Below are positions 10,390 to 52,768 of a stretch of DNA of 64,000 nucleotides, piece by piece. The stretch is from an uncultured Acidobacteriota bacterium. Its GTDB lineage: Bacteria > Acidobacteriota > UBA6911. The DNA is taken from positions 78,185 through 142,184 of the forward strand of contig CAWEJX010000012.1 of assembly GCA_963809485.1 (NCBI GenBank). Direction: 5' to 3'. Numbering within the stretch: position 1 is the stretch's first letter; every line of letters starts with the position of its first letter. The translations under genes were made by a program, and so were the position numbers. The notes below the pieces were generated by a model. That model saw nothing but the letters and a program-made list of their open reading frames with translations, was not told where the DNA came from and made no database searches.

Positions 10390-10414
10390 GTTGGTATCCT
10401 CCCGGAGCAATGCA

Positions 10415-15164: not shown

Positions 15165-15169
15165 AAACT

Positions 15170-16090
15170 CTACAGTTGATCCATCAGCCTTTGTATCGCG
15201 ATTGCTGCCGTCGCGCCATCTCCTACTGCAGTGACTATCTGTCCCCGGGAATTGCTTCGGATGTCACCCGCCGCGAAAATATTGGGGAGGTTTGTTTGCA
15301 TCATTTCATTCACCAGAATGCGTCCCTGGTTGTCGAGTGACAGTAGATTTCTGATAAAGCCGGTGTTCGGATCGGTTCCCACGGCGATCAGGACGCCATC
15401 GATACTGAGGGTTTCGGTCTTTTGTGTCGCCCTGTCGTAAATCTCAACCGCTTCAACCTTGCCGCTACCTGATATCTTGACCAGCTCTGCGCCGCATCGA
15501 AGCTCGATCTTGCTATTGGAACTAATCCTTTCCTTGAGAACCGCGGAAGCGGAAATCGTCCCTTCGACCTCGATCAGATACACTTTGGCTGCGATCCTGG
15601 CCAGGTAGAGAGCCTCGGTGACGCCCCTGTCTCCGGCGCCGCATACAACCACTGTCTTATCGTGAAACTGACCGCCGTCACAAAGAGCGCAATCAAATAC
15701 GCCCTTCTCCTCCAGTTCCCGCTCCCCGGGTATATTCAGTTTCCTGGGACGGCAGCCGCTGGCAATTATCAGCACTTTAGCCGTGAAGTATCTCCCGTCG
15801 GTCAGCTGCACGCAGGTCGATTCGGAATACGATTCGATCCCGGCGACCTCGGCCATTTCCATCTGCAGGCCCGAGTTGACGGCCTGGATCGTCATTTCCG
15901 AAGCCAGCTGGGGCCCTGCGACGCCGTCACTGAATCCGGGATAATTCTCGATCCAGTCGGCATTCTTAATGCTGCCGCCAAAACCATCCTTATCAACCAG
16001 CAGGGTCCGATACTTGCCCCGGCTCAAATAGAGGCCGGCCGTAAGCCCCGCAGGGCCTCCACCAATTATTATGGCATCAAAGTCCCACAT
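15170..16090 (-). CDS. Thioredoxin-reductase-like pyridine nucleotide-disulfide oxidoreductase
   Basis: The ORF is 306 aa. It has FDAIIIGGGPAGLTAG (FAD-binding), the redox motif CALCDG in the position of the TrxB CATCDG, a second Rossmann fold (VVVCGAGDRGVTEA) and a C-terminal AAGD motif. It is the first gene of the long minus-strand gene string. Confidence 0.75.
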   Translation of the reverse strand: MWDFDAIIIGGGPAGLTAGLYLSRGKYRTLLVDKDGFGGSIKNADWIENYPGFSDGVAGPQLASEMTIQAVNSGLQMEMAEVAGIESYSESTCVQLTDGRYFTAKVLIIASGCRPRKLNIPGERELEEKGVFDCALCDGGQFHDKTVVVCGAGDRGVTEALYLARIAAKVYLIEVEGTISASAVLKERISSNSKIELRCGAELVKISGSGKVEAVEIYDRATQKTETLSIDGVLIAVGTDPNTGFIRNLLSLDNQGRILVNEMMQTNLPNIFAAGDIRSNSRGQIVTAVGDGATAAIAIQRLMDQL

Positions 16091-32991: not shown

Positions 32992-35407
32992 ATGGCAGAG
33001 GAATCAATGGAAAAGCGGCCCTGGCTATGGAGGCCCCCCGAAGGCGGCTATATCGGCCGCAGAGGCTTGCGTCCCAAGGAAGCCCCTGAAAAGGTCTCGG
33101 GCAAAGCAGTGTATACAAGTGATGTTTACCTCCCGGGAATGCTGTATTTAAAAGCATTACGTTCCCCCTATGCCCACGCCAGGATCAAGAAGATGGATAG
33201 CGGCAAAGCGGAATCCCTCCCGGGCGTCTGGGCTGTGATCCGATACGACGATCCGGATATCGACTTCTCTGATCCCTATGAGCCCGTGATAGGGCGCTCA
33301 TGGTTTTGGTATCGGAACATTCTCCCGGATATTGCCGACTTTGAAGGTGTAAGGCTGGGAGCGATGGTGGTTGCCGAATCTGAGGAGATCTGCGATCAGG
33401 CTTTAAAGCTGATTGGGCGAAGGCATTGAGTGGGAACAATTGCCATTCATTCTGGATCCGGAGGAAGCCGTGAAATCTGGCGCTCCTCTCCTTCACCCGG
33501 AAAGAAATCCCAATAGCAATATCTTCGATGATGTGGTGACCTACAATATTGGTGACGTAGAGAAGGGATTTGCCTCATCCGACCATGTCGTCGAGTTCAA
33601 GTCGGTCAAAATTGAGGATGACGTCTGGGCCGGCGTAGAGCCCGGAAGCATCGTGGCGTGGCTGAAAGATGAGGAACTGGAAGTCTGGTACCACGGACAA
33701 AGAATTCCTGCGGACGTGAATTTTGTTGCAGCGCCCGTATTCAAAAACGATAAAAGCCGGCCCAAAAAAGTGAAGGTTCATACGCCCTATAACGGAGCGA
33801 CCTTCGGCGGCAATGCAATGGGATTGGTCGCCCAGCTGTGCCGATATGCAGTCATCGCAGCCAGGAAAACAGGGCGGCCGGTCAAGGTAGTGGACGATTA
33901 TGCCATGAGCTGGGAAGGCACCAGCTATGAGACCGGAACAAATCGTTTCAAGATAGGTTTTAATAACGACGGCACCATCGTTTCGATCAAAATTGACACC
34001 CTCCAGATAGCCGGCCATCCTCTGCCCAGCAAATTTGTAGATGCCATCAAAACCCCCAATATCCTGGTTCATGAAGTGCACAGTTATTGGAGCAAAGCCC
34101 ACGAGTCCTGCTGGAAAGACGGCGCCTCCAATTGCGTTCTTTCGAACCTGGTAATTAATAAAGTGGCGGCCCATCTGAATATGGACCCGATACAAGTGCA
34201 GCTGCTCAACGATGGCGCTCACGGGCATGATATGGCCTGGCTGAACGAAAATGTCAAGAAGCCCAACGGAATGCCGCTCAGGGACAGCTTGAAGGAAGTT
34301 GTCGAGGCGGGCAAGAAAGCTTTCGATTGGGACCATAAGTGGCATCCTCCGGGCACACGCAGGCTCCCCAATGGCAGGATGCACGGGGTCGGTTTTTATG
34401 CCGTGGGCTGCTGGCACACCGGCGCCAGGAAGGGAGGCGTTCCTGGCATATCCCTGGCGAGGGATGGTACGGCCACCATCTACTACCGGCGCACGGATTG
34501 CGGCCAGTCCGCTCCTTCTACCTATTGTCAGATTGCGGCTGATGAAATAGGGCTGCGCTATGAAGACGTCAAAATAGAATTCAAGGATTATTTCTATTTT
34601 GATGCGGTTCCCCCCATGGGTTCCATGGGCTCCAGTCTCAACACCTATGCTCTGGTGATGAATGCCAGGAGAATGAAGCAGCGCCTTCTGGAATATGCTG
34701 TCAAATTTCAAATGGGAGCCACGAACATCAATTACGGCGACAAGGTTCCGGCAACAGTCTCTCCGTTCCTGGGCAAAAATATTGAAGACCTGGATATCAA
34801 AGACGGCGTCATTTTTGAGAAAGCCCATCCGGAAAACAGGATGCCGGTCCGAAGAGTCGTCTCTTTTCGGCCTCGAGGCCTGGAATCGAATGCGGAAGTT
34901 GGAGAGTTCTTTGTCGGTGAAACTGCAGATGAACCTCCCATGGTGAAGGAACCCTTCAGTATGGGCCGGCAGTGCGTTTTCGTTGAAGTCGAGGTTGACA
35001 CCGAAACCGGACAGGTTGAAGTGACCCGACTGGTTCATCCTTACGACGTAGGCCAGTCGCTGAATCCCGATGTGAATGACCAGCAACTCCTTGGCGGGGC
35101 CTATTCCGGCGTAGGCGTCTCCGCCACGGAAGCCATCTACTATGATCCGCATACCGGGGTCAAGCTGAACGACAACCTGCTCGGCTACCCGATGCTGACC
35201 ATACTGGATATGGGCCCCATTGAGGCTCCCATCGTGGAAACACACGTGGGATGGAGCGCTTATGGACTTTACGGCTGCAGCGAAGCCGGCAAGGCGGCTA
35301 CAGCCGCAGCCATACTGGTCCCGGCCGTTTATAACGCGATCGGCAAGTGGATTGAGGAAACCCCGGTTACGCCGGAAAGAGTCCTTAGAGCGTTGGGAAA
35401 AGCATAA
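32992..35407 (+). CDS. XDH/CoxL-family molybdopterin large subunit, copy L2; one +1 frame break at about 33418
   Basis: ORFs 32992..33429 and 33413..35407 join as ...ALKLIG|EGIEWEQLPF... once base 33418 is removed. The protein is highly similar to L1 along its whole length. Confidence 0.85.
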
Positions 35408-35419
35408 GAGGTGATTCAA

Positions 35420-37807
35420 ATGAAGAGCCTAATGAAATTTGAGCATATCAATGCCGCCAGCCTGGATGATGCGGTCTCAATTCTGCGTCAATACGGGGAT
35501 AAAGCCTGGGTCCTCGCCGGCGGAACTGATCTGGTGGGCACCATGCGGTTTGAGGTGCTGCACGACTATCCTGAAGTTTTGGTCAATCTGAAGACCATTC
35601 CGGGACTGGACTATATTAAGGAAGAGAACGGCACTCTCAAGATAGGCGCATTGACCCGGCTGGAGGACATCGCCGCTCATTCCATCGTCCGGAGCCGCTA
35701 TGCAGCTCTTGCTGAGGCAGCTCACCGGACAGCTTCGCCCCATGTTCGTGCCATGGGCACCATCGGCGGCAATCTCTGCCAGCTTATTCGTTGCTGGTAT
35801 TTCCGGAAGGAGGAGAACCGATTTGACTGTATCCGGAAGGGTGGCGCCATGTGCCACGCCGTTATCGGAGACAATCGATACCACTCCATCTTCGGAGCTG
35901 CGAGGGTCGCGCCTCCTCCCTGCTCCTCAAATTGTCCGGCCGGAAACGACATTCCCTCTTATCTGAGCAGCATCCGGGACGACAACCTTGCGGAAGCGGC
36001 TCAAATACTGCTGAGTTCAAACCCGATGCCCGCTATCACGGGCAGAATCTGTCCCCATGCCTGTGAACAAAACTGCAATCGAAGAGATTTGGATGAAGCC
36101 CTCTCGATATGCTCTGTCGAACGTTTCGTGGGGGATTACATCCTCGATCACGCCGACCGGCTGTATCAGGCTCCCCGGAGAGAAAGCAAAAAGGGCGTGG
36201 CCGTTATAGGGTCCGGGCCAGCCGGTCTTTCCGCTGCCTATTACCTCAGGAAACTCGGCTACCGCGTGACCATTTTTGAAGCCAGGGAAAAAGCAGGCGG
36301 CGTCCTTACTTACGGCATCCCGCCTTACAGATTAGCCAAGGATGTGGTAAGCAGGCAGATTCAAGCCATTGAAAACACCGGGGTGCAGTTTAAGTATGGC
36401 GCTAAGGTCGGGAAGGACATCACTCTCGATGATCTTCAGAAAAGATATAGTGCTGTCTTCTGCGCCACAGGTGCCTGGAAGTCTTCCGTTCTGGGACTAC
36501 CGAACGAAGGGTTGCTGAACCGTGGTCTGGATTTCCTGGAGAAGATCAATAGCGGATTAAGAAAGATAAGCGCCAAAAAAATATTGGTGATAGGCGGAGG
36601 CAGTGTCGCCATGGATGTTGCGACGTCCGCTCTCCGCGCGGGGGCTCAAGAAGTTCTTGTGGCTTGTCTGGAATCCCGAGATGAGATGCCTGCCTTGCCC
36701 GGAGAAGTGGAGCAGGCAGTTAAAGAAGGCATAAAGCTGATGCCTTCATGGGGGCCTTCGCGTATCTTAAAAACCAAAGGCAAGCTCTCCGGGATGGAAT
36801 TGGTCCGATGCACTTCGGTCTATGACAGCGAGCATCGATTTGCTCCCGCCTATGATCGGGCGACCAAGAATACCGTGGAGGCCGACCAGATCATTCTGGC
36901 CGCCGGGCAAAGACCCAATTTGTCGTATGCCACATCGAGCTTGAATATGGACAGGGGCTTGATTGTTGTCGATCCCGACACCCAGGCCACCAGCATCGAC
37001 AAAGTGTTCGCCGGTGGAGATGCCACAATTTCCGGTCCCCTTTCCGTGGTGGCCGCCCTGGCGTCGGGACGACGGGCCGCAGAGGCGATCAATCATTTTC
37101 TTGGAAGCGGGCGTACTTTGGAGATTGAGAAGAAAGTGGAACATCTGACCCGCTGCGATGGCGAGTGCCTGGAAAAGTCCATCCGGGTTAAGGCACCGGA
37201 GCAACCTCCATCCGACTATTGCCTGGATAAAGAGGATGTTCTGGGACTGGATATAAAAGCCGTTGAGACGGAAGCCAAGAGATGTTTCAACTGCGGATGT
37301 GACGGAGTCAATCCGTCCGATATTGCACCTGCACTGATTGCTTTGGATGCCACGATTGTCACCTCCAAGAGAAAGGTAAAGGCGGACGAGTTCTGGGTTG
37401 CGGATAAAGGACTGAAGCCGACTATCCTGGATAACGATGAAATAATAACTGAGATCCGGATACCCCGGCCGGCTGCCAACGTGAAGAGCTCATTCCTCAA
37501 GTTCGCCATGAGGAAATCTATCGACTTTCCTATCGTAAATTGCGCAGCCGCCATAGAGAGCAAGGACGGAGTCGTTAAATCAGCCCGGATCTGCTTGAAT
37601 GCGGTATACAGCAATCCTTACCGTGTGACGAAAGCCGAAGATGCGATCATAGGAAAAACCATTGATGAGGCTATGGCCGAAGATGCTGGGGCAGGCGCGG
37701 TCTCTGATGCCATACCGCTGCCGTATAACAGGTTTAAAATCCAAATAGCCAAAACATTAGTCAAGCGAGCAATACTGGCCTGCAACAACGTTCAGGGCCA
37801 CGCATAA
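35420..37807 (+). CDS. CoxM/HcrB-type FAD-binding subunit with a nested GltD-like module (glutamate synthase small-subunit type: Fe-S plus FAD/NAD(P)H)
   Basis: Residues about 1-160 and 633-798 are collinear with the 321-aa FAD subunits at 47042 and 62956. Shared blocks include GGTDLVGTMRFEVL, CQLIRCWYFRKEENRFDCIRKGGAMC and VNPSDIAPALIALDATIVTSKR. The roughly 470 aa in between read CPAGNDIPSYL...NPMPAITGRICPHACEQNC...VAVIGSGPAGLSAAYYL...ILVIGGGSVAMDVA...FAGGD, which is GltD-like. Confidence 0.8.
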   Translation: MKSLMKFEHINAASLDDAVSILRQYGDKAWVLAGGTDLVGTMRFEVLHDYPEVLVNLKTIPGLDYIKEENGTLKIGALTRLEDIAAHSIVRSRYAALAEAAHRTASPHVRAMGTIGGNLCQLIRCWYFRKEENRFDCIRKGGAMCHAVIGDNRYHSIFGAARVAPPPCSSNCPAGNDIPSYLSSIRDDNLAEAAQILLSSNPMPAITGRICPHACEQNCNRRDLDEALSICSVERFVGDYILDHADRLYQAPRRESKKGVAVIGSGPAGLSAAYYLRKLGYRVTIFEAREKAGGVLTYGIPPYRLAKDVVSRQIQAIENTGVQFKYGAKVGKDITLDDLQKRYSAVFCATGAWKSSVLGLPNEGLLNRGLDFLEKINSGLRKISAKKILVIGGGSVAMDVATSALRAGAQEVLVACLESRDEMPALPGEVEQAVKEGIKLMPSWGPSRILKTKGKLSGMELVRCTSVYDSEHRFAPAYDRATKNTVEADQIILAAGQRPNLSYATSSLNMDRGLIVVDPDTQATSIDKVFAGGDATISGPLSVVAALASGRRAAEAINHFLGSGRTLEIEKKVEHLTRCDGECLEKSIRVKAPEQPPSDYCLDKEDVLGLDIKAVETEAKRCFNCGCDGVNPSDIAPALIALDATIVTSKRKVKADEFWVADKGLKPTILDNDEIITEIRIPRPAANVKSSFLKFAMRKSIDFPIVNCAAAIESKDGVVKSARICLNAVYSNPYRVTKAEDAIIGKTIDEAMAEDAGAGAVSDAIPLPYNRFKIQIAKTLVKRAILACNNVQGHA

Positions 37808-41205: not shown

Positions 41206-42993
41206 ATGGCTATGAAGAAGGGAATAAAGAGGTCACTATTGGGAGCATGCCTGATAGCAAGCATGTTTGGGATCAGATCAGGTTTTGCTCAGGTGACATT
41301 GGAGGTCATAAGTCCGCGGGCGGAAATTCCGCCTCCGCCGTCAATTCTTCACCCCGCACCTCGGCTTGCGGATCTGGCGGGCAAAAGAATTGGATTGATT
41401 GCCAATAACAAACCCGGTGCCGAGCTCTTTTTAACGAAGATCGAAGAATTGCTCAAGCAGAAGGTCCCTGATGCAAACATCGTGCGCCTTAAGATGATGA
41501 AGGTTTCGGCTGAACAAGCCAAGAAGCTGGCATCTCAAATCGACACCTTCATCCACAGCACAGGGGACTGAGGGGGATGTACGTGGCTGGTTAGCCGCGA
41601 TACTATCGAACTGGAAAAGCTTGGCAAACCCGGCGTAGGCGTTGTCACTTCTACTTTTCTCAGTGATGCTCTTTCGGCGGCTCAAGACTCCGCTATGCCT
41701 ACGGTGCGTCTTGTAGCGGTGCCTGCCAAAAATTACTATACGGCGCGGACTCAGGAACCGTTGATGAAGGACGTTGCGGCCGCGATTATTGATAAAGTCC
41801 TCGATGCATTAAAGCGTCCTTTGACCCCGGAAGAAACAGGTGCGGCTGAAGCCTCGAAGAAGGCGAAGAAGGACGAGGAAATACTAAAGTTCACCGGAGC
41901 GACCTATAACGAAGCAGCTGAGGCGCTTTACAAAGGATTTCTCGAGCGCCACTGGGCCGATGGATTGCCCATAATGCCTCCCACAAAAGAGGCTGTCGAT
42001 TGGATGCTTACAGGAACGAACCGCTCTCCGGAGGAAGTAATCGGCATTGTCGCCACAAAAGGCGGGAAGGCAACAATAAGAAAGATTGCCGCGAACGCTG
42101 TAATGGCGGGGGCAAGGCCGGAGTATTTGCCGGTGATCATTGCGGCTATGGAGGCCATCACAGGAGAAGGATTAAGCGCCCTGCATCTGCAGGCCTCCGC
42201 GGGATGCGTAAGCCCGCTCATTTTGGTCAACGGGCCGATCGCTCAAGAATTGGAGATAAATTCCGGGGCCGCCTATATGGGCCATGGATTCCGGGCGAAT
42301 AACTCCATTGGACGTGCCGTCAGGCTGAGCATGATCAATTGCGGGCACATGTGGCCGCAACAAAACGATATGTGCTTGCTTGGACGGCAGGATGCGTTTG
42401 GGAATACGACTTTTGCGGAAAATGAGCAAGAGAGCCCATGGAAGCCGTACCACGTTGACTTGGGATTCAAACCGGAAGACAGCACCGTTACGGTAGTGAA
42501 TTATATGCACCACAAACGCGGTCCCGGCGGGCCGGTCGTGCCTGCAACTCCGTATGAGAGCCTGTTTGACCTGGCGAAAACAGTAGAGATCGTAAACACG
42601 CCTTTGGGATCGGCATCCAATGAGGTCATAATAGCCATCGATCCGACTTTCGCCCACCAACTGTCCACGGTGGGGTTTAGCAAAGAGGATATTAAATGGT
42701 GGATCTTTTTGAATGCGCGCACTCCGTACTCGGAACTAAGAAAAGAAGAGAAAGAAAACCTTCGAAAGTCCATCGAAAGCGGGAAAACGCCCGCCTATCT
42801 TTGGACCTGGGGCGAACAAGGGCAAGAGAAAAAAATTGAAAACATAGCGGATGTACCCTGCCTCCAGAAACCGGACCGGATTCACATTGCCGTGGTGGGT
42901 GGTTCGCCGGGATATTCGTATGTCTGGGAGTCACCGACGGGGCAGGCCACTAAACTGATACGCGGCGCCGCGCTCACTAAAGCAGGGCGTTAG
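41206..42993 (+). CDS. Two-domain selenoprotein with a signal peptide; Sec codon at 41569..41571 (motif UGGC)
   Basis: The signal peptide is MAMKKGIKRSLLGACLIASMFGIRSGFAQ. APRLADLAGKRIGLI is followed later by QIDTFIHSTGD-TGA-GGCTWLVSRDTIELEKLGKPGVGVVTSTF. That reading continues in frame (41044 and 41695 are both 1 mod 3) into HWADGLPIMPPT, ANAVMAGARPEYLPVIIAA, NNSIGRAVRL and AENEQESPW. Confidence 0.8.
41583..41598 (+). promoter_or_regulatory. SECIS-like stem-loop 11 nt downstream of the UGA at 41569
   Basis: The mRNA reads UGA-GGGGGAUGUAC-[GUGGCU GGUU AGCCGC], a 6-bp stem including one G-U pair, with a GGUU loop. Confidence 0.55.
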
Positions 42994-43101
42994 TCCGCCC
43001 GGGATTTGTGCTCGGTTCGCAGCACGCCACGCGTGCTCTTTCAAGGAGCATCGTCCGGACGCAAAGAGCATGCAGCGCTGGCCAAAAGCGGCATGCGAAT
43101 C

Positions 43102-43148
43102 GGCCACGGCTTCCAGCCGTGGCCTTGGCCTGTCCCCGCAAAGCGGGG
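43102..43148. terminator. Two GC-rich hairpins between convergent genes; candidate bidirectional terminators or REP-like elements
   Basis: ggccacggc-ttcca-gccgtggcc (43102-43124) has a 9-bp stem. ccccgc-aaa-gcgggg is at 43134-43148. Neither has a clear U-tract, so confidence is low. Confidence 0.3.
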
Positions 43149-43330
43149 CGAACGGGTGTTATTCCTGTTTTGCGGAGCATACAGAGAAAAGAAACTTTAC
43201 AGAGCAGCTTTCGCATGCTCCGCGTGACACTTCCCTTTTGCTGGTGGCCGCTTGCTGGAAGGACTCAGCCTGTGAGGGCGCATGGCCCGAAGCCCGTGGC
43301 TTTATGGGCACTGAGGTCACTGAAAGAACA

Positions 43331-44665
43331 TCAGCGTGTGCCTTTTTTATCTTCTTTGCCAAATGGGATATCCTGCTTGCCGGCCCCAGTCAGGACCTCT
43401 TCCCAATTGGCGGGCAGCTTCACCTCTCTGCTCACTGCTTTGGAACCGCCCCACACGGGAACGATCATGTTTTTCTCTCCCGGAGGGCCTCCTGCAACCA
43501 ATATGAGCAGTTGATCGATGGAAGGCGTAGGGATCATCGCCTTCGACGCGTCGGTTGCCCCGGGAATGGAGTCAGACGCTCCAGGCGCTTCGCCGGACGG
43601 ACGGTTGAACCTTTTTTTGAACTCGGCTGCGGGCGTCACGGCATGTTCGGCGATGTACTTTTTAAGTCCGTCCTTCGTCCATCCGTCACCCGCCAGTATG
43701 TCGACCGTGTCGTAATTGAGAATCAACAGCAACACGCCCATGCGGGCGCTGTGCAATCCTACCAGTCGGTCCGCCAAGAGGCTCAGGAACTGCTCGGAGG
43801 TCAGACCCAATCCCACAATCGCCTGATAGGATTCCGCCGTGACGACCGTAACGAGATTCGAGTCTTTTGAGTGGCCCAAATCGACGCGCAAAGGCTTCCA
43901 GGGATTCCCCTCTTCGATTTCAGCAACACAATTCGCGAACTCGCCCGGTTGACCTAAAGTAGACATGTCGTTGACACCCGGCCAACTTCCGCCGATGTTG
44001 TTGATGATCATGTGCAGGGCCCGGCCGATTGTCGCATTTGACCGCCAGCCGCGTCCCAGGGCGTTTGACCCTGAATTGATGTCCAGTTGCCTGGCGATCG
44101 GGCCGCTGACGATGATCAAGGGGGAGTCATTGCTTGTAGTGGTCGCCACCTGCGACAGGTTGAACTCCGGGTCGGACACGGCCTCGACAGCCGCAATGAG
44201 CACCGGCATGTACTCCGGCCGGCACCCCGCCATCACTGCATTGACGGCAATTTTCTCCACTGTGGCCTGCCCCCCCTTGGGCGGCACGGAGGCGATCACC
44301 TTTTCGGCGGGCATATCAACGCCGCGCAGCATCTCCCTTACGAGTTCGGGCGTTGGAGGCACGATCGGCAAACCGTCGCCCCACCCGCGCCTGTAAAACA
44401 GATCGTTGACCTCCGCGAAAGCATCCTTGACGATCGTAATTTTCTCGGTTCTCCCCTCGACAAATTCTCCCGCCAAAGAGGGCCGCGTCTTGCCGGTAGC
44501 CGCCATGACAGTTTTGAGAAGTTTGTCGATATAGGCTCCATCTTCGCGTATGCCGGCCGGGTTATAGACTTCGATCACCTGATTGGCCGCAGCGAAAACG
44601 GAGGATGCCAGAACAGCATTGAGGATGAGGGCACGCACGATGGTACGCTGAGAAGTTGTCGGCAT
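43331..44665 (-). CDS. C-domain-only member of the family, with a signal peptide
   Basis: ATG 44665 follows AGGAG. The signal peptide is MPTTSQRTIVRALILNAVLASSVFAAA. The C-domain has GWGDGLPIVPPT, VNAVMAGCRPEYMPVLIAAVEA, SNATIGRALHMIINNIGG and EIEEGNPWKPLRVDLG. There is no UGSC module. Confidence 0.75.
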   Translation of the reverse strand: MPTTSQRTIVRALILNAVLASSVFAAANQVIEVYNPAGIREDGAYIDKLLKTVMAATGKTRPSLAGEFVEGRTEKITIVKDAFAEVNDLFYRRGWGDGLPIVPPTPELVREMLRGVDMPAEKVIASVPPKGGQATVEKIAVNAVMAGCRPEYMPVLIAAVEAVSDPEFNLSQVATTTSNDSPLIIVSGPIARQLDINSGSNALGRGWRSNATIGRALHMIINNIGGSWPGVNDMSTLGQPGEFANCVAEIEEGNPWKPLRVDLGHSKDSNLVTVVTAESYQAIVGLGLTSEQFLSLLADRLVGLHSARMGVLLLILNYDTVDILAGDGWTKDGLKKYIAEHAVTPAAEFKKRFNRPSGEAPGASDSIPGATDASKAMIPTPSIDQLLILVAGGPPGEKNMIVPVWGGSKAVSREVKLPANWEEVLTGAGKQDIPFGKEDKKGTR

Positions 44666-44919
44666 CCCATAGCTCCTGTTTCGAAATGTGTGGGCGCGCA
44701 TCGTTACCCCGGAGGTCCATCGGCCGTCGCGAGGTCCGTGAGAATGGATGTGATACAAGGGCGACACAGGCATTGCGGCCGCATTTCGCAGCCGATTGTC
44801 CCGCAGGTTCCCGGGCTTTTGACTCGTTGGAACGAGTATCGCGCCCTAAACCATTCTAACGGCCGGCATGGGTCCATGCCCTTTGACATTTGGCTACGAC
44901 AAAATCATGTGCGGACGGC

Positions 44920-45172
44920 TCTCCAAAGACTTTCTCAAAACCACTGGCATGAGATCCTCGCCGGCAGTTTTGAGAAAGTCTCTGGAGAGCGGTTTTCACC
45001 CCATCAACAGCAACGGCTGAGTAAATGGCACTTATATATGATTTTTCAGCGTGCGTCAGCGTTTATCGGCGTTAGTCAGCGTTAAAATTTATGCACGGGC
45101 TTCCAGAATCGGTATCAAAACGACTGTCGCGAGATCCTCGCCCCCAGTTTTGACACAGTTTCTCCAGGGCCG
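44920..45172. repeat. Composite intergenic repeat: a 23-bp-stem hairpin, a TCAGCG-iteron segment related to the 230-bp repeat family, and a second degenerate hairpin unit
   Basis: ctctccaaagactttctcaaaac (44920-44942) pairs with gttttgagaaagtctctggagag (44968-44990), matching 22 of 23. The segment gagatcctcgcc...agttttga.. repeats at 44951-44990 and 45131-45170. tcagcgtgcgtcagcgtttatcggcgttagtcagcgtt lies at about 45046-45083. Confidence 0.5.
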
Positions 45173-45276
45173 TCCGGTAAGACTGAATCGCGTCCGCTTA
45201 TAGATTCAGGTTTTTTCGCGCTTCGCATCGGGTTGATCCCAATGGCCATAGGTAAAGATCTGTTGGATGCACTGCG

Positions 45277-46953
45277 CTAGTAAATCTCGTAGTTGGGAAC
45301 AAGAGCTTTATATTTTGCTACAAGCTTGTCCCAATTGCGGGGAAACTCGATCTTTTTGGTGACGAAGCTGTTTTCGAAACCGCCCGAGCTCTTAAGTGCC
45401 GCCATCCAGACGCCAGACCCGCCCGAGACGACCACTATGAAATCCTCTTCTTTGAGCGGCGATCGAAATTCGCCCCGAGGCGCGTTTTTCAAAATGAACT
45501 CCCTGAGCCTCTTCTTCGACCACCCTTCGCTTGAAAGAATGCGAGCATGATCGGGGATGACCACCAGGCAGGACAGCGCGTTAGGACCAAAGCTCGCGAG
45601 TCTTTCGGCAATTCCCTGAGCCGTCGTCTGACTGGGGATGGTTTGGGTAAAGCTATTCGGAAAAAGTACAGTCAGCGCGCTGTCCTCTTTTTTCAGGCCG
45701 AAGTTGACATGCAGGGGTTCCCATGGGCTTTCTTCTTCATTCTCCCCGAGCACAAGGGTGTATTTTTGGGGATTGCCCATGACCCCCATGTCCTCGATAC
45801 CCTTTCTCACCCCAGCGATGTTCTTGACCATTAGGCCGACGGCGCGCCCAATGGCGGCGTTGGCCATGTTCCCGGGACTGAAAACGCCCGAGCCGCAATT
45901 TATATTGAGATCATTGCGCACCCCGCCGTTGATGATGAAGAAAGGCGCCCACGAACCCGTGCTTGTTTGAAAGACATCGAATCTGGTTTTCGGATCCGCC
46001 AGAGCTTGCACCGCCGCTATCAGCACCGGCATGTAAGTAGGAAGGGCGCCGGCCATGACCGCGTTTACTGCAATTTTCTCAACAGTAGCCTTGCCTAACT
46101 TCGGTACCATCTTGGCCACCACCTGATCGGGCGGCAGGTCCGTCCCGGTCATCATTTCCGCCACCGCCTTTTCGGTTGGCGGCACAACCGGCAGGCCATC
46201 GGTCCAGCCCTTACTGTAGAAGAAATGGGTTACCTCCTGTTGGGTTCCCTTGAAAATGATCCGGGGAGCCTTCGCCGCTTTCGGCTTCGGCGATTTCTCT
46301 TCGGGCGTCAGCGGTTTAGTCAGTGCGGCAATAATTTCCGGCAGAACGGCAGTGATGCCGCCCTCGATATCTGCGGCAACAGTGGATTCACAAGCGATAT
46401 TTTCAGCCAGGATTCTGACTCCCGGCATTCCTTTGACAGATGCTGCTGCCTGGGCATCCTTAACGAAACCATAATTCGCCAGTACCACGACCGGCGTGCC
46501 AAAGTCCTCGACGGATACTCCGTTGTACGCGAGGTACTTTGTGCAGGACCCTCAGTCACCGACCATGGCAATGACAGCGTCCATACTCTTTACCCAGGCG
46601 GCAAATTCATTGCCGTCTTTCTGTTCTGCCACGATGATGGTCGTCAAACGGGGTTCAAAGAAGCTGAACTCAGCAGTAGTATATTTTTCTTTCAGTTGCT
46701 TCGCAATCGCCTCTGCCATAGGCTTGGCGGCGCGCTTCCTGTTGGTAAACAGCCCGATTTTCTTGCCGGCCAAAGTATCCAGCCGGGGCGCGAGTCCCCT
46801 CGGCGGCACTGCATCCGCTTCCGCCCACGGGCTAAGGACCTCGTATTGATTGTCCGGTGCGGGGCTGGCGAACGGCGTTGGTGAAGGGGCCGTTACTACC
46901 AACGTGCAGAGGACAGTGGTGATCAAAACCGACGCAATTTTATGCATAAGCAC
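45277..46953 (-). CDS. Two-domain selenoprotein with a signal peptide; Sec codon at 46554..46552 (motif UGSC)
   Basis: The N-terminus reads MLMHKIASVLITTVLCTLVVTA. APRLDTLAGKKIGLF is followed later by SMDAVIAMVGD-TGA-GSCTKYLAYNGVSVEDFGTPVVVLANYGFVKDAQ. That reading is in frame (46953-46488=465) with GWTDGLPVVPPT, VNAVMAGALPTYMPVLIAA, ANAAIGRAVGLMVKNIAG and ENEEESPWEPLHV. Confidence 0.8.
46500..46541 (-). promoter_or_regulatory. Extended SECIS-like hairpin starting 10 nt downstream of the UGA at 46554..46552
   Basis: The mRNA reads CAAAGU-A-CCUCG-CGUACA-ACGGA-GUA-UCCGU-CGAGG-ACUUUG. That gives 16 bp in three helical segments. The apical GGAGUAUCC is the same 9-mer as in the 14808-14826 hairpin but is read in a different codon phase. 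Confidence 0.45.
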
Positions 46954-46984: not shown

Positions 46985-47022
46985 TTGCCATTCAGTTTTT
47001 CAGAATACCAACTGAATGGCAA
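46985..47022 (-). terminator. Hairpin just downstream of the FAD-subunit gene; candidate terminator
   Basis: ttgccattcagt (46985-46996) and actgaatggcaa (47011-47022) form a 12-bp stem. There is no clear U-tract. The boundary of the duplication falls inside this hairpin. Confidence 0.3.
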
Positions 47023-47041
47023 ATTGTATTTTCTGCAAAGA

Positions 47042-48007
47042 CTAAGCGCAGGCCAGTATCGCTTTCTTTACCATCCCCGCGGCGACCTGAATCTTCCACT
47101 TGTTCAGCGCCAGAGCCCTCGCTTCCGTGACCGCAACCGTGCCGGCCGCCTGCGCGCTCGCCACATCGATCGTCTTGCCCGCTATGGATTCCTCCGCTTT
47201 GGTCGCCCGGTAGGGTTTGTTATATACCGCATTGAGACATATCCGGGCCGTTCCGCCCCCAATGGCCGCCGCACAATTCACGATGGGAAAGTCTATCGAC
47301 GACCTCAGGGCAAACTTTACAAAGGCGCTTTTGACGCCGGAAGCCGGCGCGGGAACCTGAATCTCCTTTACGATTTCATCGTTCTCCAGCACCGTGGAAC
47401 GAGGGATCTTTACCGCCCAGAACTCCTCGGCGTTGAGGGTTCTCTTCGACGTCACGATCCTGGCATTTAAAGCGACCAGCGCCGGCGCCGTGTCGCTTGG
47501 ATTCACAGCCATGCAGGCTGAAACACCCCCGAATATCGAGTGATATCGATTCTCCCCGGCCATGGCAAAGCACGCTTTGCCGCCTTTCCTGATACAGAAA
47601 AACCTGTTGTCGTGAAGCCGGAAATACCAGCATCGATTCAGCTGGCAGATGTTGCCGCCGATCGTCCCCATTTCCCGGATGTGCGGCGAAGCGGTCTTAT
47701 GGGCCGCCTCCGACAGCGCCGTCCATTTGCTTTTGACCACACTGCTCTTCGCAATGTCCTCGAGCCGGGCCAATGCGCCAATCCGCAGCATGCCCTTTTC
47801 TTCTTTGATGTAATCCAGGCTTGGCGTAATGGTCTTGAGGTTTACCAGAATCTGAGGATACATGGCATCCGGGAGTACCTCAAACCTCATGGTTCCCACA
47901 AGATCGGTGCCCCCGGCAAGTGCCCAGGCATTGGCTGCACGCAGGGCCGACACCGCCTCTTCTACCGTCTTGGCATTGACACGGGTGAATTTCTTTACGG
48001 TCTTCAT
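47042..48007 (-). CDS. CoxM/PaoB/HcrB-type FAD-binding medium subunit with a 4-Cys loop
   Basis: The ORF is 321 aa, with GGTDLVGTMRFEVL (FAD_binding_5-like) and CQLNRCWYFRLHDNRFFCIRKGGKAC, a four-Cys insertion as in [4Fe-4S]-bearing HcrB/PaoB. It is about 99% identical to 62956..63921. Confidence 0.8.
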   Translation of the reverse strand: MKTVKKFTRVNAKTVEEAVSALRAANAWALAGGTDLVGTMRFEVLPDAMYPQILVNLKTITPSLDYIKEEKGMLRIGALARLEDIAKSSVVKSKWTALSEAAHKTASPHIREMGTIGGNICQLNRCWYFRLHDNRFFCIRKGGKACFAMAGENRYHSIFGGVSACMAVNPSDTAPALVALNARIVTSKRTLNAEEFWAVKIPRSTVLENDEIVKEIQVPAPASGVKSAFVKFALRSSIDFPIVNCAAAIGGGTARICLNAVYNKPYRATKAEESIAGKTIDVASAQAAGTVAVTEARALALNKWKIQVAAGMVKKAILACA

Positions 48008-48021
48008 TTTTGTCTAAGCTC

Positions 48022-50367
48022 CTATGCTTTGCCCAATGCTTTAAGGATCCTGTCCGGGGTGACCGGTTCAATGTCCACATACTTGCCTATGGCGTTGTAT
48101 ACGGCCGTAGGCATGATGGTGTGGTTGCAGGCGCCGCCGGATTCCCCGATGCCGCAGCTTCCGTAAGGGGCATACGCCAGACCCGTTTCCACATAGGCGC
48201 AGTCAATGGATGCGACGTCATTCATCACATTCACCGGGTAACCTATCAGGTTATCGTTGAGTACCACTCCTGTTTTTGGATCGTGATATACCGTCTCTTT
48301 GCTGGATCTCCCGAGCCCCATATAAGCGCCGCCGTACTGCTGGCCGTTAAACGCGTCCGGGTTTATTACTCTGCCTCCGTCATTGACACTAACCTGTTTT
48401 AGTATTTCTATCCCTCCCGTATCGGGGTCTACCTCTATTTCCACGAAGTGCGCTTGCCGGACCATGTTGTACTCATGTCCCACACCGCCACGCCCTGTGT
48501 GACCGGGAGTATAGTCCCATACATACAAATAATAAGTCAGGGCTGCTGCGATTTGCGCCAGTGTCTTTTTGTTTTCCGGGTGTGCCTTTTCAAAAATTAC
48601 GCTGTCCTTGATGTCCAATTCCTCAGGCTTTTTATTCGGAAAGAACGCAGGCCTTGAAGGCATCAGATTTCCCAGTGTTCTGCGCAGGGGGGTTGGCTGG
48701 GTTACCATTTCAAGGATCAACTGCTTCATCTTCCGCGCGGCTCTTGCCGCTGCGAGATTACTTCCGCTCATCCCCTGGGATCCGCCGCCCGGCTCCGATA
48801 CGAGACCGTCGCGGCCTTCGAACGGTCTTATCCGAACGTCTTTATAATCGGCTCCCATTTCATCCGCCACCACCTGGGAGTAGGAGGTCTGTCCACACAA
48901 CCCTACATCACATTGCGTAGCCAGGATATCAACCGTTCCATCGGCATTCACTCGGATGCCCATGCCGGCAGTCCCCACCGTATGCGCCCACCCGACGGTG
49001 GAGACATAGCCCATCCCGTGATAATTCCCATTGGGCAGAATTTTTGTCCCGGGCAAGTGCCATTTCTTATCCCACTCCATAATCTTCTTACCCAGTTCGT
49101 TCACCTCTTTGAAACTGTCTCTGTCCGTGTTAAATCCCTGCGGCTTCCTGATGTGTTCGTTGGCATAGGCCCAGTCGTGGCCTTCGCAGCCCTCATTGAT
49201 CTGGGCGACCTTGCTTGGATCCATCCCCAGTTCGCCGGCTACGTGCTCCCATACCTGGGTTACAACTCTGGTGGCCGAGCAACCATGCTTGAAGCACTGG
49301 ATGGGCGGCTTTGTATGAGCCGCCACATCGCACGTAATGTATATATTGGGGATCGTGGTGCCTTCGTGTATTTTGTTGGTACTGGTTTGTGTAACCCAAG
49401 CTTCGTAGCATTTCAGTTGCATGGCGGTGATGCGGCCATCCAGTTTGAATCCTACTTTGAAGTAATAGCGCGACCGGGCGTCCTCGTCACAGCCCTCGAA
49501 GTGACTGTCATCGTCCAGGACCTTTACCGGACACCCCGTTCGCCTGGCTGCTATCACAGCAACCACTGCTGTATGGGGGTTCGAGCGTAAATTTCCCGTA
49601 CCTCCAAAAATAGCTCCATTATAGGGCAGGTAAAGATGGATCTTGTGCACAGGGCTGTATTGCCGCAGAGCGTCCATCGCGTACAACCAGTTCTGGCCGT
49701 GATGCCAAACATCCAGATAGTCTCCCCGGCATTCGGCCACTCCGACATGGCCCTCTACCCCGGCCCACACGTCCTGATCATCACCCGCTACCCATTCGAC
49801 CACTTTGTCGGCCTCGGCAAATCCTTTTTCAATATCCCCAAACTTGATAGGAGGCTGCCTCGTCTTATTGTTCGACTTGGGATTTGTGTCCGGGCGCATT
49901 ATTGGAGCGCCCGGCTTCAACGCTTCCTCAGGGTCCAGGATGACCGGCAGTTCTTCTATCTCGAGTTCTATCAGCCGCAATGCCCGGTCTACTATCGCCT
50001 CGCTTTCGCCTACCACCACAGCTCCCATCATCCCCGGATACCAGTGGTTCGTGTCGGAGACAAGCGCTTGGCCTTGATACTTAGGCCAGGTTATCGTGGG
50101 GTCATCATATCGGAGTACCGCTCGGACTCCGGGGAAAGCCTCGGCCTTGCTGGTATCCAGGCGTTTGATCTTAGCGTGGCCGTGGGGGGATCTAAGAAAC
50201 TTCGCATATAGCATCCCCGGACGGTATATATCCCGGGTATACACTGCGCTTCCGCTCGCTTTTTCGTAACCATCCAGACGGCGTATGCGGCGTTTCCCGA
50301 TCACACCGCCTTCCGGCACCGGCCAAAGCCACGGATATAAGGGTTCTCCCTCTTTTAGACCGTACAT
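48022..50367 (-). CDS. XDH/CoxL/PaoC-family molybdopterin large subunit (intact, 781 aa)
   Basis: The N-terminus reads RRLDGYEKASGSAVYTRDIYRPGMLYAKFLRSPHGHAKI. The C-terminus reads CGIGESGGACNHTIMPTAVYNAIGKYV. Confidence 0.85.
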   Translation of the reverse strand: MYGLKEGEPLYPWLWPVPEGGVIGKRRIRRLDGYEKASGSAVYTRDIYRPGMLYAKFLRSPHGHAKIKRLDTSKAEAFPGVRAVLRYDDPTITWPKYQGQALVSDTNHWYPGMMGAVVVGESEAIVDRALRLIELEIEELPVILDPEEALKPGAPIMRPDTNPKSNNKTRQPPIKFGDIEKGFAEADKVVEWVAGDDQDVWAGVEGHVGVAECRGDYLDVWHHGQNWLYAMDALRQYSPVHKIHLYLPYNGAIFGGTGNLRSNPHTAVVAVIAARRTGCPVKVLDDDSHFEGCDEDARSRYYFKVGFKLDGRITAMQLKCYEAWVTQTSTNKIHEGTTIPNIYITCDVAAHTKPPIQCFKHGCSATRVVTQVWEHVAGELGMDPSKVAQINEGCEGHDWAYANEHIRKPQGFNTDRDSFKEVNELGKKIMEWDKKWHLPGTKILPNGNYHGMGYVSTVGWAHTVGTAGMGIRVNADGTVDILATQCDVGLCGQTSYSQVVADEMGADYKDVRIRPFEGRDGLVSEPGGGSQGMSGSNLAAARAARKMKQLILEMVTQPTPLRRTLGNLMPSRPAFFPNKKPEELDIKDSVIFEKAHPENKKTLAQIAAALTYYLYVWDYTPGHTGRGGVGHEYNMVRQAHFVEIEVDPDTGGIEILKQVSVNDGGRVINPDAFNGQQYGGAYMGLGRSSKETVYHDPKTGVVLNDNLIGYPVNVMNDVASIDCAYVETGLAYAPYGSCGIGESGGACNHTIMPTAVYNAIGKYVDIEPVTPDRILKALGKA

Positions 50368-50378
50368 TTTCTCCTCCT

Positions 50379-51041
50379 CTAGGCGTTCCCGATGACTTCC
50401 TTAATCGCTATGATGTGTTGTGTATAGGTGCCGCACCGGCATATGTTGCCCCCCAGCGCGTCCCTCATATCCGCTTCAGTCGGCTTGGGAATACGGTCCA
50501 GCAGCGCCTTGGCCGTTACCACAAATCCCGGCGTGCAGTAGCCGCACTGCATGCAATGGTTCAGAACGTAAGCCTCGATGAGTTGCGGATTGTTAATGGC
50601 AACACCTTCTGCCGTCTCTATGGCCATGCCGTCACAATCCGCCGCAAACGTCATGCAGGAAAGCACCGGCCGCCCGTTCATAATCACCGTGCACGATCCG
50701 CAGGCCCCGTAACCGTTGCACATATCTTTGATGGATATAAAGCCCAGCTGATCGCGAAGCACATCGCGCAGCATCCATTCCGGCTCGACCCGGAGCTCAT
50801 ACTTATGCTTGTTCACGGTGAATTTTATCGTTTGGGCAGCTGCCGAGGCGGCCGGCGCGACGGTGCCCGCCGGAGCGGCACCGGCTCGACTCGCCGCCTG
50901 GGGATCAGCGGCAACCACAGTGGCGCCGGCTCCGGTACCGAGGATGGCTACAGAGCTGACAGCAAATTCCCGGCGCGACATCGGTCCCAACCCTGTTCTT
51001 TCACATTCTTCGCTTTTCTTTTTTTCTTCCTCTTTCGACAT
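50379..51041 (-). CDS. [2Fe-2S] small subunit (CoxS/PaoA-like) with a twin-arginine signal
   Basis: MSRREFAVSSVAILGTGAG carries the S-R-R-x-F Tat motif. CNGYGACGSCTV..SC and MQCGYCTPGF..CRCGTY are the two [2Fe-2S] motifs. Confidence 0.8.
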   Translation of the reverse strand: MSKEEEKKKSEECERTGLGPMSRREFAVSSVAILGTGAGATVVAADPQAASRAGAAPAGTVAPAASAAAQTIKFTVNKHKYELRVEPEWMLRDVLRDQLGFISIKDMCNGYGACGSCTVIMNGRPVLSCMTFAADCDGMAIETAEGVAINNPQLIEAYVLNHCMQCGYCTPGFVVTAKALLDRIPKPTEADMRDALGGNICRCGTYTQHIIAIKEVIGNA

Positions 51042-51695: not shown

Positions 51696-52658
51696 CTACT
51701 CCCAGCCGCTTGGCGAGTTGTATGGTGCGACAACGCCTATGGCCTCGATTTCATGAATCTGGCCACCCCAGATTTTGAAGATATGCATCGCCAGCGTATC
51801 AAAGGGATTGTAGGATCTATCGACCGTCTCACGCCCCGGATCATTAAGTATTCTAAATTGTTTTTTCTCCATCGCGTGACGAAAGTCGGAAAAGCCGAGC
51901 GCCAGCCCAGTCTTTTCATCGGCGATCTCGACTCGGCGACTGACAATCTCGGTGATGTATTCGAACGTTTGCATGTCGATTTGGCTCCTGCAATCGATCA
52001 TTCCCGAGAGCCCGATCGGCCGTTGGACTGCGCCGGGAATGTCGGGTCCGCTCAACGGACCGCCGGACGGCGCGGTGCGCAACCCATTCTCGTGACGATC
52101 GCAATCAGAGGCGAAGGGCGCAAGCGAACCGTTGTTCAGATCCACTGCATCGTAATAGGACTTGGCGATGTGAATCAGCCGGCCGCGCGAGTCGGCATAT
52201 TCATAGGGTATTTCCATCGGGATGGCAGGACGAACCTTGTTCAATGTCGCCGGAAGCTCGCCGCCGCGCGGGATGGCAATCAAGTGTTCGGCTTCGATGA
52301 TCATGCCGTCAGCCAACTTCAGCCGGAAACCAACCTGCGCAGGTTTCCCTTCGGACTGCATGATGACCATGCCGCCGACTTGCTGCGATAGGGGATCTGG
52401 TACGACAATTTTGAACTCCGTCGGACCGGCCGATGCCGTTTTCCAGAGACCTTCTCCCGGCCGGATACGCTTTGCGTTTTCAACCATCCTGACACCGCTG
52501 CTCAAGGGCGCATTCTGGGGATCGTGTGCCGCCAGCGCAGCTATGTATTTATCCGCCAGCGCCATCAGGCACGTACGGTCGCAATCGGCCGCATATGCGG
52601 TTGCCATACTGAAAATCAACAGTGCGGCTCTTCCCAGTACTGAATATACGAATCGCAT
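51696..52658 (-). CDS. Exported hypothetical protein (function unknown)
   Basis: ATG 52658 follows GGAGGA. The signal peptide is MRFVYSVLGRAALLIFSMATAYA. I recognised no family. Confidence 0.5.
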   Translation of the reverse strand: MRFVYSVLGRAALLIFSMATAYAADCDRTCLMALADKYIAALAAHDPQNAPLSSGVRMVENAKRIRPGEGLWKTASAGPTEFKIVVPDPLSQQVGGMVIMQSEGKPAQVGFRLKLADGMIIEAEHLIAIPRGGELPATLNKVRPAIPMEIPYEYADSRGRLIHIAKSYYDAVDLNNGSLAPFASDCDRHENGLRTAPSGGPLSGPDIPGAVQRPIGLSGMIDCRSQIDMQTFEYITEIVSRRVEIADEKTGLALGFSDFRHAMEKKQFRILNDPGRETVDRSYNPFDTLAMHIFKIWGGQIHEIEAIGVVAPYNSPSGWE

Positions 52659-52768
52659 AGCATCCTCCAAGCCTTCGGGTTATCCGCAGCTTTCTATGAC
52701 GCTCTCAATGTCGAACGCTTTCTGCGCAAAAGGTTCTGTAAGATCAGCCTCAAAAGACGGTGATCGTC

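Follow-up and report, generated by a model that had tools for sequence, protein, structure and literature searches.

The window analysed here, a stretch of 64,000 nucleotides (nt) from an uncultured Acidobacteriota bacterium, contains three adjacent genes, which we call A, B and C. Their products appear to form an exported branch of the UGSC selenoprotein family. A and B are predicted to be two-module fusions in which selenocysteine (Sec, U) is inserted at an in-frame UGA within a U-x-x-C motif, and both start with an N-terminal export signal; C bears such a signal as well and consists of the C-terminal module (C-module) only. We consider it probable that A and B are exported two-module UGSC-fusion selenoproteins with a redox role shared with co-encoded exported enzymes. 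Within this explanation, the predicted export and Sec insertion are established by the sequence evidence, and we infer that the U-x-x-C pair would need an electron donor outside the cytoplasm. The features on which the analysis is based are listed below (the arrow ↓ marks a candidate cleavage site).

41212 to 42993, plus strand: gene A, predicted exported UGSC-fusion selenoprotein of 593 amino acids (595 if the start is at 41206) by read-through translation; PF24696, 97.6 bits.
41212 to 41289, plus strand: predicted signal peptide of A, MKKGIKRSLLGACLIASMFGIRSGFA↓QV.
41569 to 41571, plus strand: Sec codon (TGA) of A, STGD-U-G-G-C.
41582 to 41599, plus strand: hairpin of A resembling a selenocysteine insertion sequence (SECIS), CGUGGCU-GGUU-AGCCGCG, 13 nt after the UGA.
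46953 to 45277, minus strand: gene B, predicted exported or membrane-tethered UGSC-fusion selenoprotein of 558 amino acids, starting at GTG 46953 or ATG 46947; PF24696, 97.9 bits.
46846 to 46953, minus strand: leader of B, hydrophobic region (h-region) IASVLITTVLCTLVVTA followed by the Pro/Ser/Thr linker PSPTPFASPAPDNQ.
46552 to 46554, minus strand: Sec codon (TGA) of B, MVGD-U-G-S-C.
46497 to 46545, minus strand: SECIS-like extended hairpin of B, AAAGUACCUCG...CGAGGACUUUG, with the apical part GGA-GUA-UCC.
44665 to 43331, minus strand: gene C, predicted exported protein of 444 amino acids with the C-module only, without Sec, UGSC module or internal stop.
44585 to 44665, minus strand: predicted signal peptide of C, MPTTSQRTIVRALILNAVLASSVFAAA↓NQ.

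A preliminary description of this DNA had reported hydrophobic, signal-like N-termini on three adjacent family members, and we find them in the sequence: the N-terminus of A, read from ATG 41206, is MAMKKGIKRSLLGACLIASMFGIRSGFAQ, that of B is (V/M)LMHKIASVLITTVLCTLVVTA and that of C is MPTTSQRTIVRALILNAVLASSVFAAA. Each of these genes has a Shine-Dalgarno motif. In gene A, GAGGAGG lies 7 nt ahead of ATG 41212, and because of this spacing ATG 41212 is more likely the start than ATG 41206, a choice which shifts the leader by two residues only. In gene B, GAGGAG is found upstream of GTG 46953 and ATG 46947, while in gene C the motif AGGAG lies 7 nt ahead of ATG 44665, and a public gene call has the same start of the 444-amino-acid protein. 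Shine-Dalgarno motifs likewise precede the starts of the other leader-bearing members of the window, at 27610, 22193 and 56602. In the leader-bearing genes inspected, no such motif stands before any start codon past the hydrophobic stretch, which places the starts upstream of this stretch and not downstream of it. If the leaders were start-codon artefacts, or hydrophobic N-termini of cytoplasmic proteins, A, B and C would stay in the cytoplasm, as do the members of the operon at 6.8-15 kb; the GTG that is found in frame as codon 30 in A as well as in C could be read in this way. However, the codon-30 GTGs lack the Shine-Dalgarno motifs that are strong before the upstream starts, the leaders are conserved in orthologues, homologues carry lipobox and twin-arginine translocation (Tat) variants, and N-terminal length is bimodal in the family, with the true cytoplasmic forms beginning at the first conserved motif (see below). 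A cytoplasmic location of the three proteins is thus extremely improbable.

A scan of the 40.9-47.2 kb region for promoters and terminators gave counts no higher than those in shuffled sequence. The 611-nt spacer between B and C holds two copies of a 79-nt palindromic element, at 44915-44993 and 45095-45173 and thus 180 nt apart, each with 34-nt arms and an 11-nt loop. The copies are 72% alike, and the window has no others; possible identities of the element are a repetitive extragenic palindromic (REP) or miniature inverted-repeat transposable element (MITE)-like sequence, a terminator or an operator.

Signal peptides were judged with a simple rule for the n-, h- and c-regions, applied to 41 genes of the window. 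The rule flags 13 of them, including five of the six leader-bearing family members (A, B, C and the genes at 27610 and 22193; 56602 is missed), and none of the clearly cytoplasmic enzymes, among them the CoA-transferases, dihydrodipicolinate synthase (DHDPS)-like, thioredoxin reductase (TrxR)-like and uroporphyrinogen decarboxylase (URO-D)-like proteins, glycyl-radical enzyme and acyl-CoA dehydrogenase. By the same rule set, A and C match the pattern of general secretory (Sec-dependent) export with cleavage by signal peptidase I, that is a positive n-region, an unbroken h-region of some 10-15 residues and small residues at -3 and -1. The leader of A has a net charge of +4 before the h-region and the cleavage candidate GFA↓Q, the leader of C has the candidate AAA↓N, and both are most likely cleaved signal peptides of this type. 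The AlphaFold2 (AF2) model of C has a detached low-confidence helix at its N-terminus. None of the leaders of A, B and C contains the RR motif of Tat signals (S/T-R-R-x-F-L-K type).

The case of B is more complex, since its leader may be cleaved late or may tether the protein to the membrane. After the 17-residue h-region follows the Pro/Ser/Thr-rich linker, and most B orthologues read ...PSPTPFASA↓A there, a canonical AXA site nine residues past VTA↓P, where B and the locus L083 read ASP. The leaders, especially those of B and of the gene at 22193, could therefore be uncleaved signal anchors which keep the catalytic modules membrane-tethered and facing outwards. The length of the B h-region, the Pro at +1 of VTA↓P and the linker would agree with this, as would the 18-residue h-region of 22193, which lacks an AXA motif. 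On the other hand, the canonical ASA↓A is present a few residues on in most B orthologues, and the h-regions of A and C are short and followed by good AXA sites. Tethering is a possibility that we regard as somewhat doubtful; as the location is extracytoplasmic either way, it would refine the explanation by exported UGSC fusions and not contradict it.

The export signals are kept in orthologues, where the leaders recur, diverged in sequence and still hydrophobic. Two metagenome contigs (L001 and L002) encode A orthologues that match A in architecture and have a TGA (GD-U-GGC and GD-U-GSC) and the motif GAGGAGG; their leaders, MKKRINWLLLEACLVASLCSGSVLA↓QVTLEV in L001 and MNKRIGRLPLAACLSLLFGWSIPARA↓QVTLDV in L002, differ in sequence and are equally hydrophobic. 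Diverged yet hydrophobic leaders occur in the A-type loci L001, L002 and L024-L036. Compared with orthologues, the leaders are 30-64% identical and the mature sequence next to them 55-83%; signal peptides typically diverge faster than mature sequence.

When genomes were scanned, each species being represented once, 80 loci were obtained, which belong to Acidobacteriota, Dehalococcoidia, Thermodesulfobacteriota, Clostridia, Beta- and Gammaproteobacteria, Nitrospirae and Phycisphaerae. In about 70 genome loci, the start lies at one of two typical distances from the conserved PR..L.GK anchor: the short class, of about 26-29 amino acids, has no hydrophobic window (H<1.1) and starts directly at the first conserved motif, while the long class, of at least 46 amino acids, has a hydrophobic window with H>2.2 in nearly all cases. 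Export signals are recognisable in relatives from at least six phylum-level groups and include lipobox signals (L014, L058, L108 and P0122) and twin-arginine leaders, namely SRRNFI in L047, SRRGFLKG in L049, NRRKLLQ together with a Sec codon in L076 and L077, and those of P0123 and P0125. The leader of L049 passes the Tat model TIGR01409 (20.3 bits, cut-off 16.7). B was also used as the query in a scan of metagenomes, which gave 80 loci. Among those with at least 55% identity to B and a complete N-terminus, a leader is found in 28 of 28, one being a lipoprotein signal; some 40 loci at 52% identity or less have no leader and begin at YEVLSPWAE. As for C, among its nine nearest relatives seven consist of the C-module only and carry export signals, of the general secretory type in P0121, P0124, P0127 and P0129, with a lipobox in P0122 and with Tat motif plus lipobox in P0123 and P0125. 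A neighbour-joining tree of C-modules mixes exported with cytoplasmic forms and Sec-containing with Sec-less ones, which indicates that export signals and redox pair were gained or lost several times.

Two of the three genes had been proposed to encode Sec, in the motifs UGGC and UGSC, and the TGA codons at 41569 (A) and 46554 (B) agree with this. Wherever a recovered locus has the motif, a TGA occupies the identical place in it. This holds for about 46 of the 70-odd genome loci in which the motif region is readable and for 77 of 77 motif-spanning B-type metagenome loci, and the TGA is conserved in the A orthologues. The hairpin lies at +13 to +31 from the UGA and has a G-containing loop, GGUU or GGUC (the latter in GCCGGC-GGUC-GUCGGC after TGA 56956). 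All 7 pairs of the consensus stem show a compensatory change in at least one sequence across clades, and the lower stem of the B hairpin is conserved in L054, L057, L058 and L063. Full-length homologues without Sec are continuous proteins with GDNGMG or similar at the motif and no Cys at either position. The motif thus occurs essentially only in its Sec form, which fits the 255 Sec against 21 Cys members given in the UGSC family counts of PMC2398784. Taken together, these patterns support Sec decoding at the UGA of A and B. A scan of the whole window at Rfam gathering thresholds gave no match, and no Rfam model for bacterial SECIS was found; the window contains no tRNA gene (tRNA-Sec).

In public gene calls, the Sec members appear as two pieces divided at the UGA, as would be correct if the TGA were a true stop separating a small exported N-terminal fragment from a separately translated, leaderless and cytoplasmic C-module. 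Separate genes for the two modules do exist, in the operon at 12.6-15.1 kb of the window. Against this, the TGA falls exactly at the U of U-x-x-C in all of more than 100 motif-bearing loci with the frame continuing, the hairpin that follows it shows covariation, the Sec-less homologues are continuous single proteins, and the residues that directly follow the TGA, GGCTWLVSRDTIELEKLGKPG, belong to the conserved sequence of PF24696. We therefore judge termination at this codon very improbable. As the public calls break all Sec members at the UGA, the full-length exported proteins are hidden in current annotation.

The N-terminal modules of A and B belong to the UGSC family PF24696, with 97.6 and 97.9 bits against a gathering score of 25 (E-value 1e-27). 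The motif is UGSC in B and the variant UGGC in A, with Sec encoded by an in-frame TGA in both. Neither protein reaches the equivalog cut-off of NF041046, 125 bits (A 86.4, B 69.5); by these scores they are related to the free-standing UGSC proteins and are not equivalogs of them. C gives no match to PF24696, the module being absent, and retains the first family motif after its leader (VIEVYNP). It is thus a C-domain-only protein, as had been noticed, and in this it resembles the split cytoplasmic operon.

Structural information comes from AF2 models of C and of the Sec-less paralogue at 27610 (for the latter, predicted local distance difference test (pLDDT) 86.7 and predicted template-modelling score (pTM) 0.87). 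The 27610 model consists, in this order, of a detached low-confidence helix corresponding to the leader, a strand (EVLNP), a flavodoxin-like alpha/beta module and the C-module. The N-module is an alpha/beta three-layer structure with the motif at a strand/helix junction. When the full 27610 model was searched against the Protein Data Bank (PDB) with Foldseek, only the N-module was matched, to the flavodoxin domain of flavodiiron proteins, NrdI, WrbA, MsuE and IIB-cellobiose, and these matches are generic flavodoxin-like ones with a query-normalised template-modelling score (TMq) of at most 0.17. A thioredoxin- or DsbA-like fold of the N-module was rejected, none of the top 50 Foldseek matches of this model being of either kind. 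The N-modules of A and B would accordingly be flavodoxin-like by homology to the Sec-less 27610. The C-module, of about 400 amino acids, has invariant polar residues and no conserved Cys, and its family comprises about 5000 clusters at 50% identity, 3453 of them at E≤1e-10. The invariant polar cluster consists, in the numbering of A, of T258, N295, N363, N376 and E403, and H325, S329, R368 and R392 are close to it. It has no Pfam or NCBIfam match, and PF24696 was the only Pfam match at E≤10 when the modules were scanned separately. Sequence searches of the PDB, by phmmer with C and by hmmsearch with the family alignment, gave no meaningful match, and Foldseek with the C model found nothing in the PDB below E 0.1; its weak matches to SelD/PurM-like and MmgE/PrpD structures are not significant and were discarded.

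The enzymes encoded around the three genes are the source of a possible redox context. The relevant features are:

47042 to 51041, minus strand: molybdenum (Mo)-hydroxylase of the PaoABC/xanthine dehydrogenase family, directly upstream of B, with 2Fe-2S, Mo and flavin adenine dinucleotide (FAD) subunits (NCBIfam matches).
51696 to 52670, minus strand: protein with signal peptide and no Pfam or NCBIfam match, of unknown function, between the flavoprotein and the Mo-hydroxylase.
52769 to 54364, minus strand: FAD flavoprotein with Tat signal (TRRNFIQ), FAD_binding_2/flavocytochrome-c-like.
14637 to 16090, minus strand: cytoplasmic counterpart, TrxR-like gene (15170-16090) and leaderless UGSC selenoprotein gene (TGA at 14840).

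The proposed neighbourhood of Tat-exported redox enzymes is borne out by these genes, as the 2Fe-2S subunit of the PaoABC-like set has the twin-arginine leader SRREFAV and the flavoprotein has TRRNFIQ. From 54364 to 43331 on the minus strand, the flavoprotein, the unknown protein, the Mo-hydroxylase, B and C form a same-strand run that encodes only leader-bearing or Tat-linked proteins. A similar arrangement is found on the contig of L086/L038 (LJUC01000020.1 = Ga0111186_1020), which carries the order 2Fe2S-Mo-FAD-B, the flavoprotein and two more family genes and is 88-91% identical at the nucleotide level to the window genes B and 52769-54364; the flavoprotein orthologue (88% nt-identical) is flanked there by the B orthologue on one side and a further exported UGSC fusion on the other. 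The order 2Fe2S-Mo-FAD-B recurs in L085. L038/L086 is labelled 'Phycisphaerae bacterium SM23_30', while the window gene at 27610 is instead closest (79% amino acid identity) to Acidobacteria Zod_Metabat metagenome-assembled genomes (MAGs), and this conflict of taxonomic labels among the relatives may reflect either a binning error or gene transfer.

Exported members in other bacteria have other neighbours. In six or seven Acidobacteriota loci (L024, L025, L026, L028, L034, L036), a pyrroloquinoline quinone (PQQ)-dependent dehydrogenase (PF01011, E-values down to 1e-79) is encoded about 1 kb downstream of the A-type gene, in L034 with a cytochrome c between both genes; PQQ dehydrogenases are periplasmic enzymes. 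In a Desulfatiglans MAG and a Thermodesulfobacteriota MAG, the gene immediately upstream of an exported UGSC fusion encodes a rhodanese-like protein with a signal peptide (L054:2280-2726 and L017:1709-2221). These last cases are relevant to a different function of the U-x-x-C motif, namely that of a sulfur or selenium relay or binding site, comparable to DsrE/TusA-like persulfide or polysulfide carriers or to a metal(loid) site, for which no outside electron donor would be needed. The alpha/beta three-layer N-module with the reactive residue at the strand/helix junction is compatible with such a relay, and no reductant gene was found nearby. Sulfidic and anoxic habitats would fit as well: Zodletone spring is indicated by MAG isolate names, and peat and sediment are suggested by contig sample prefixes. 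Yet rhodanese adjacency is seen in only 2-3 of the 29 exported loci scanned and in 0 of 14 further exported B-type loci, and no metal-transport genes are nearby. Moreover, the TrxR-like protein (15170-16090, minus strand; TIGR01292 at 311 bits, just under the cut-off) is encoded directly upstream of the leaderless UGSC gene, which points to disulfide or selenenylsulfide cycling. We consider a relay unlikely. The TrxR-like protein is a candidate dedicated reductase of the cytoplasmic U-C pair, and the position of its gene is the best hint that this pair cycles as a selenenylsulfide, in agreement with the redox role preferred here.

Further family members and counterparts in the window are:

56602 to 58320, plus strand: paralogue D, leader-bearing UGSC fusion with TGA at 56956, H-U-S-T-C and SECIS loop GGUC.
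27610 to 29433, plus strand: paralogue with signal peptide, without Sec or Cys (GDAGQA), used for the structure model.
22193 to 24034, plus strand: paralogue with long h-region, without Sec or Cys.

Hydrophobic N-termini had been ascribed to all three of these paralogues and are present, with some differences in quality. The leader of 22193, anchor-like in its h-region, is probably a signal anchor. In 56602 a Glu lies within the h-region, and the leader is only a probable export signal; the orthologue L067 has a canonical leader, and L076 and L077 have the Tat leaders mentioned above. The 27610 orthologues L003 and L004 retain the leader. The family members of the minus-strand operon at 6.8-15 kb are leaderless, as had been stated; this operon has Sec codons at 14840 and 8261 and includes a Sec-less fusion at 8668-10410. 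Two of its genes are frameshifted. In the leaderless Sec-containing fusion 8580-6852 (minus strand), the frameshift lies about 30 nt upstream of the Sec codon (8255-8345), and the reading ...ADRLRQY to GCDAVISGVGG-U requires one base to be skipped at tat-c-ggc; possible causes are an indel in the assembly, decay to a pseudogene, and recoding at this site. The C-module-only gene 13679-12626 (minus strand) is frameshifted at 13040-13140, with the open reading frames 13062-13679 and 12626-13132 as the result, and the junction ...FHVERGF to KAGDSTVTV requires the skipping of one extra 'c'.

Genes related to the Mo-hydroxylase are found elsewhere in the window. The segment 62923-64000 is a 98.5% identical duplicate of 47008-48086 (the FAD-subunit gene and its flank); a second copy of the operon probably begins at the window end. 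A Mo-subunit gene is frameshifted at 33350-33500 on the plus strand (32992-33429 and 33413-35407), and a further copy is present in fragments (29879-30808 and 31123-31695). Several indels within 64 kb suggest an imperfect assembly or decaying paralogues. The gene 35411-37807 (plus strand) encodes 798 amino acids, of which the N- and C-terminal parts appear to resemble the FAD subunit 47042-48007 of the other Mo-hydroxylase set; the insert of about 400 residues between them is, by eye, putatively NAD(P)H/FAD-binding and GltD-like.

Several components of this system are already known. The UGSC-containing protein of Zhang and Gladyshev was reported in 2007-2008 (PMC1976440, PMC2398784), and its function is still described as largely uncharacterised in a 2026 review (PMC13188914). 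A and B have in common with that family (PF24696; NF041046) the U-G-S/G-C motif, the TGA-encoded Sec and the downstream hairpin. They differ in that NF041046, with 147 positions, describes free-standing proteins, whereas A and B are fused to the 400-amino-acid C-module and carry export signals; the UGSC literature searched makes no mention of a C-module fusion with export signals. The flavodoxin-like fold predicted by the paralogue model also differs from the thioredoxin-like fold suggested in 2008. The closest description is the 'UGSC/Unknown_1' fusion of the Global Ocean Sampling selenoproteome (PMC2398784, Fig. S1A), which likewise joins a UGSC selenoprotein module to a conserved domain of unknown function; that domain may be the present C-module, and the text searched mentions neither export signals nor gene context for it.

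By way of functional likeness, the expansion of paralogues in the window and the TrxR-like gene beside the cytoplasmic operon mirror GrdB and PrdB. These form substrate-specific paralogue families in anaerobes, with a thioredoxin reductase gene in the operon. They share the U-x-x-C motif, as listed in Table 2 of PMC2398784. An identity with GrdB/PrdB (PF07355) was rejected, as there is no sequence match even at E≤10. Here, unlike in those systems, the partners GrdA, GrdC and GrdE are lacking, the members are exported, and many have no redox pair. DsbA-like selenoproteins, Tat-exported FdnG and MccSep are examples of exported selenoproteins. SaoB, SaoX and SaoC combine Sec with a signal peptide or lipoprotein signal, in a system so far reported in anaerobically growing bacteria only (bioRxiv 10.1101/2022.07.06.499078), and MccSep is a multihaem selenoenzyme reported to be essential for sulfur respiration (bioRxiv 10.1101/2025.11.18.688581). 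All of these have unrelated folds and motifs (CU/CC solute-binding proteins, haem proteins, Mo-bisPGD enzymes), and none has the UGSC module or this C-module. The view that exported U-x-x-C selenoproteins are rare is thus fair, with the qualification that exported bacterial selenoproteins of other families are documented. The UGSC family, its fusion and exported selenoproteins elsewhere are known, and the exported branch of the UGSC fusion is apparently undescribed: in the literature searched we found no account of this branch, of how it is distributed over phyla with its three types of signal, or of a link to periplasmic redox enzymes.

The following mechanism can be proposed. Sec would be inserted during translation in the cytoplasm by means of the SECIS hairpin after the UGA, and the polypeptide, made up in A and B of a short N-terminal strand, the flavodoxin-like UGSC module with Sec-x-x-Cys and the C-module of about 400 amino acids, and in C of the C-module only, would be exported afterwards, directed across the cytoplasmic membrane by its N-terminal signal. 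Outside the cytoplasm, the selenol and thiol of the U-x-x-C pair may form a redox or nucleophilic centre that acts on a small molecule bound by the C-module; an organic acid or phenolic compound of an anoxic habitat is the probable substrate. The partners of the pair would be the co-encoded Tat-exported Mo-hydroxylase and flavoprotein rather than thioredoxin, and C and the Sec-less paralogues may be partner subunits or non-redox variants.

A number of observations weigh against this explanation. The synteny of the Mo-hydroxylase with B comes from close relatives only and is weak independent evidence, and the neighbourhoods of the divergent exported members are heterogeneous, exported B-types adjoining tannase/feruloyl esterase, arylsulfotransferase or ABC-2 exporter genes. 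Neighbour scans found no DsbD, CcdA or thioredoxin (Trx)-like gene near the exported loci. The obvious cleavage site of B, VTA↓P, is non-canonical, and the C-module lacks a structural or sequence relative to anchor a chemistry. In the family alignment no C-module column or Cys was found to co-vary with the Sec motif, and many members, exported ones included, have neither Sec nor Cys (GDNGMG, GDAGQA), which implies that the redox pair is not essential to the function of the C-module. Finally, the several frameshifts of the window, all outside A, B and C, indicate an imperfect assembly quality.

A bolder proposal, which we put forward as tentative, is that the branch represents an unrecognised class of periplasmic selenoenzymes, with a catalytic fold absent from the PDB, Tat delivery in some lineages, selenol-dependent reductive or group-transfer chemistry on extracytoplasmic organic compounds (perhaps derived from phenolic or humic matter), and Mo-hydroxylase, flavoprotein or PQQ partners in the place of thioredoxin. 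Where delivery is by Tat, the proteins would be expected to fold or to take up a cofactor before they leave the cytoplasm.

The existence of an exported branch limits the functional models for a family which is among the most abundant selenoprotein families in aquatic metagenomes, as a selenol/thiol pair outside the cell membrane must work without cytoplasmic thioredoxin. The branch is large, widespread and phylogenetically scattered, mostly among anaerobic bacteria, and brings to attention a C-module family of about 5000 clusters without Pfam model or structural relative. The TrxR homologue beside the cytoplasmic gene, and the Tat-linked Mo-hydroxylase and flavoprotein beside the exported cluster, offer experimental handles on both branches.

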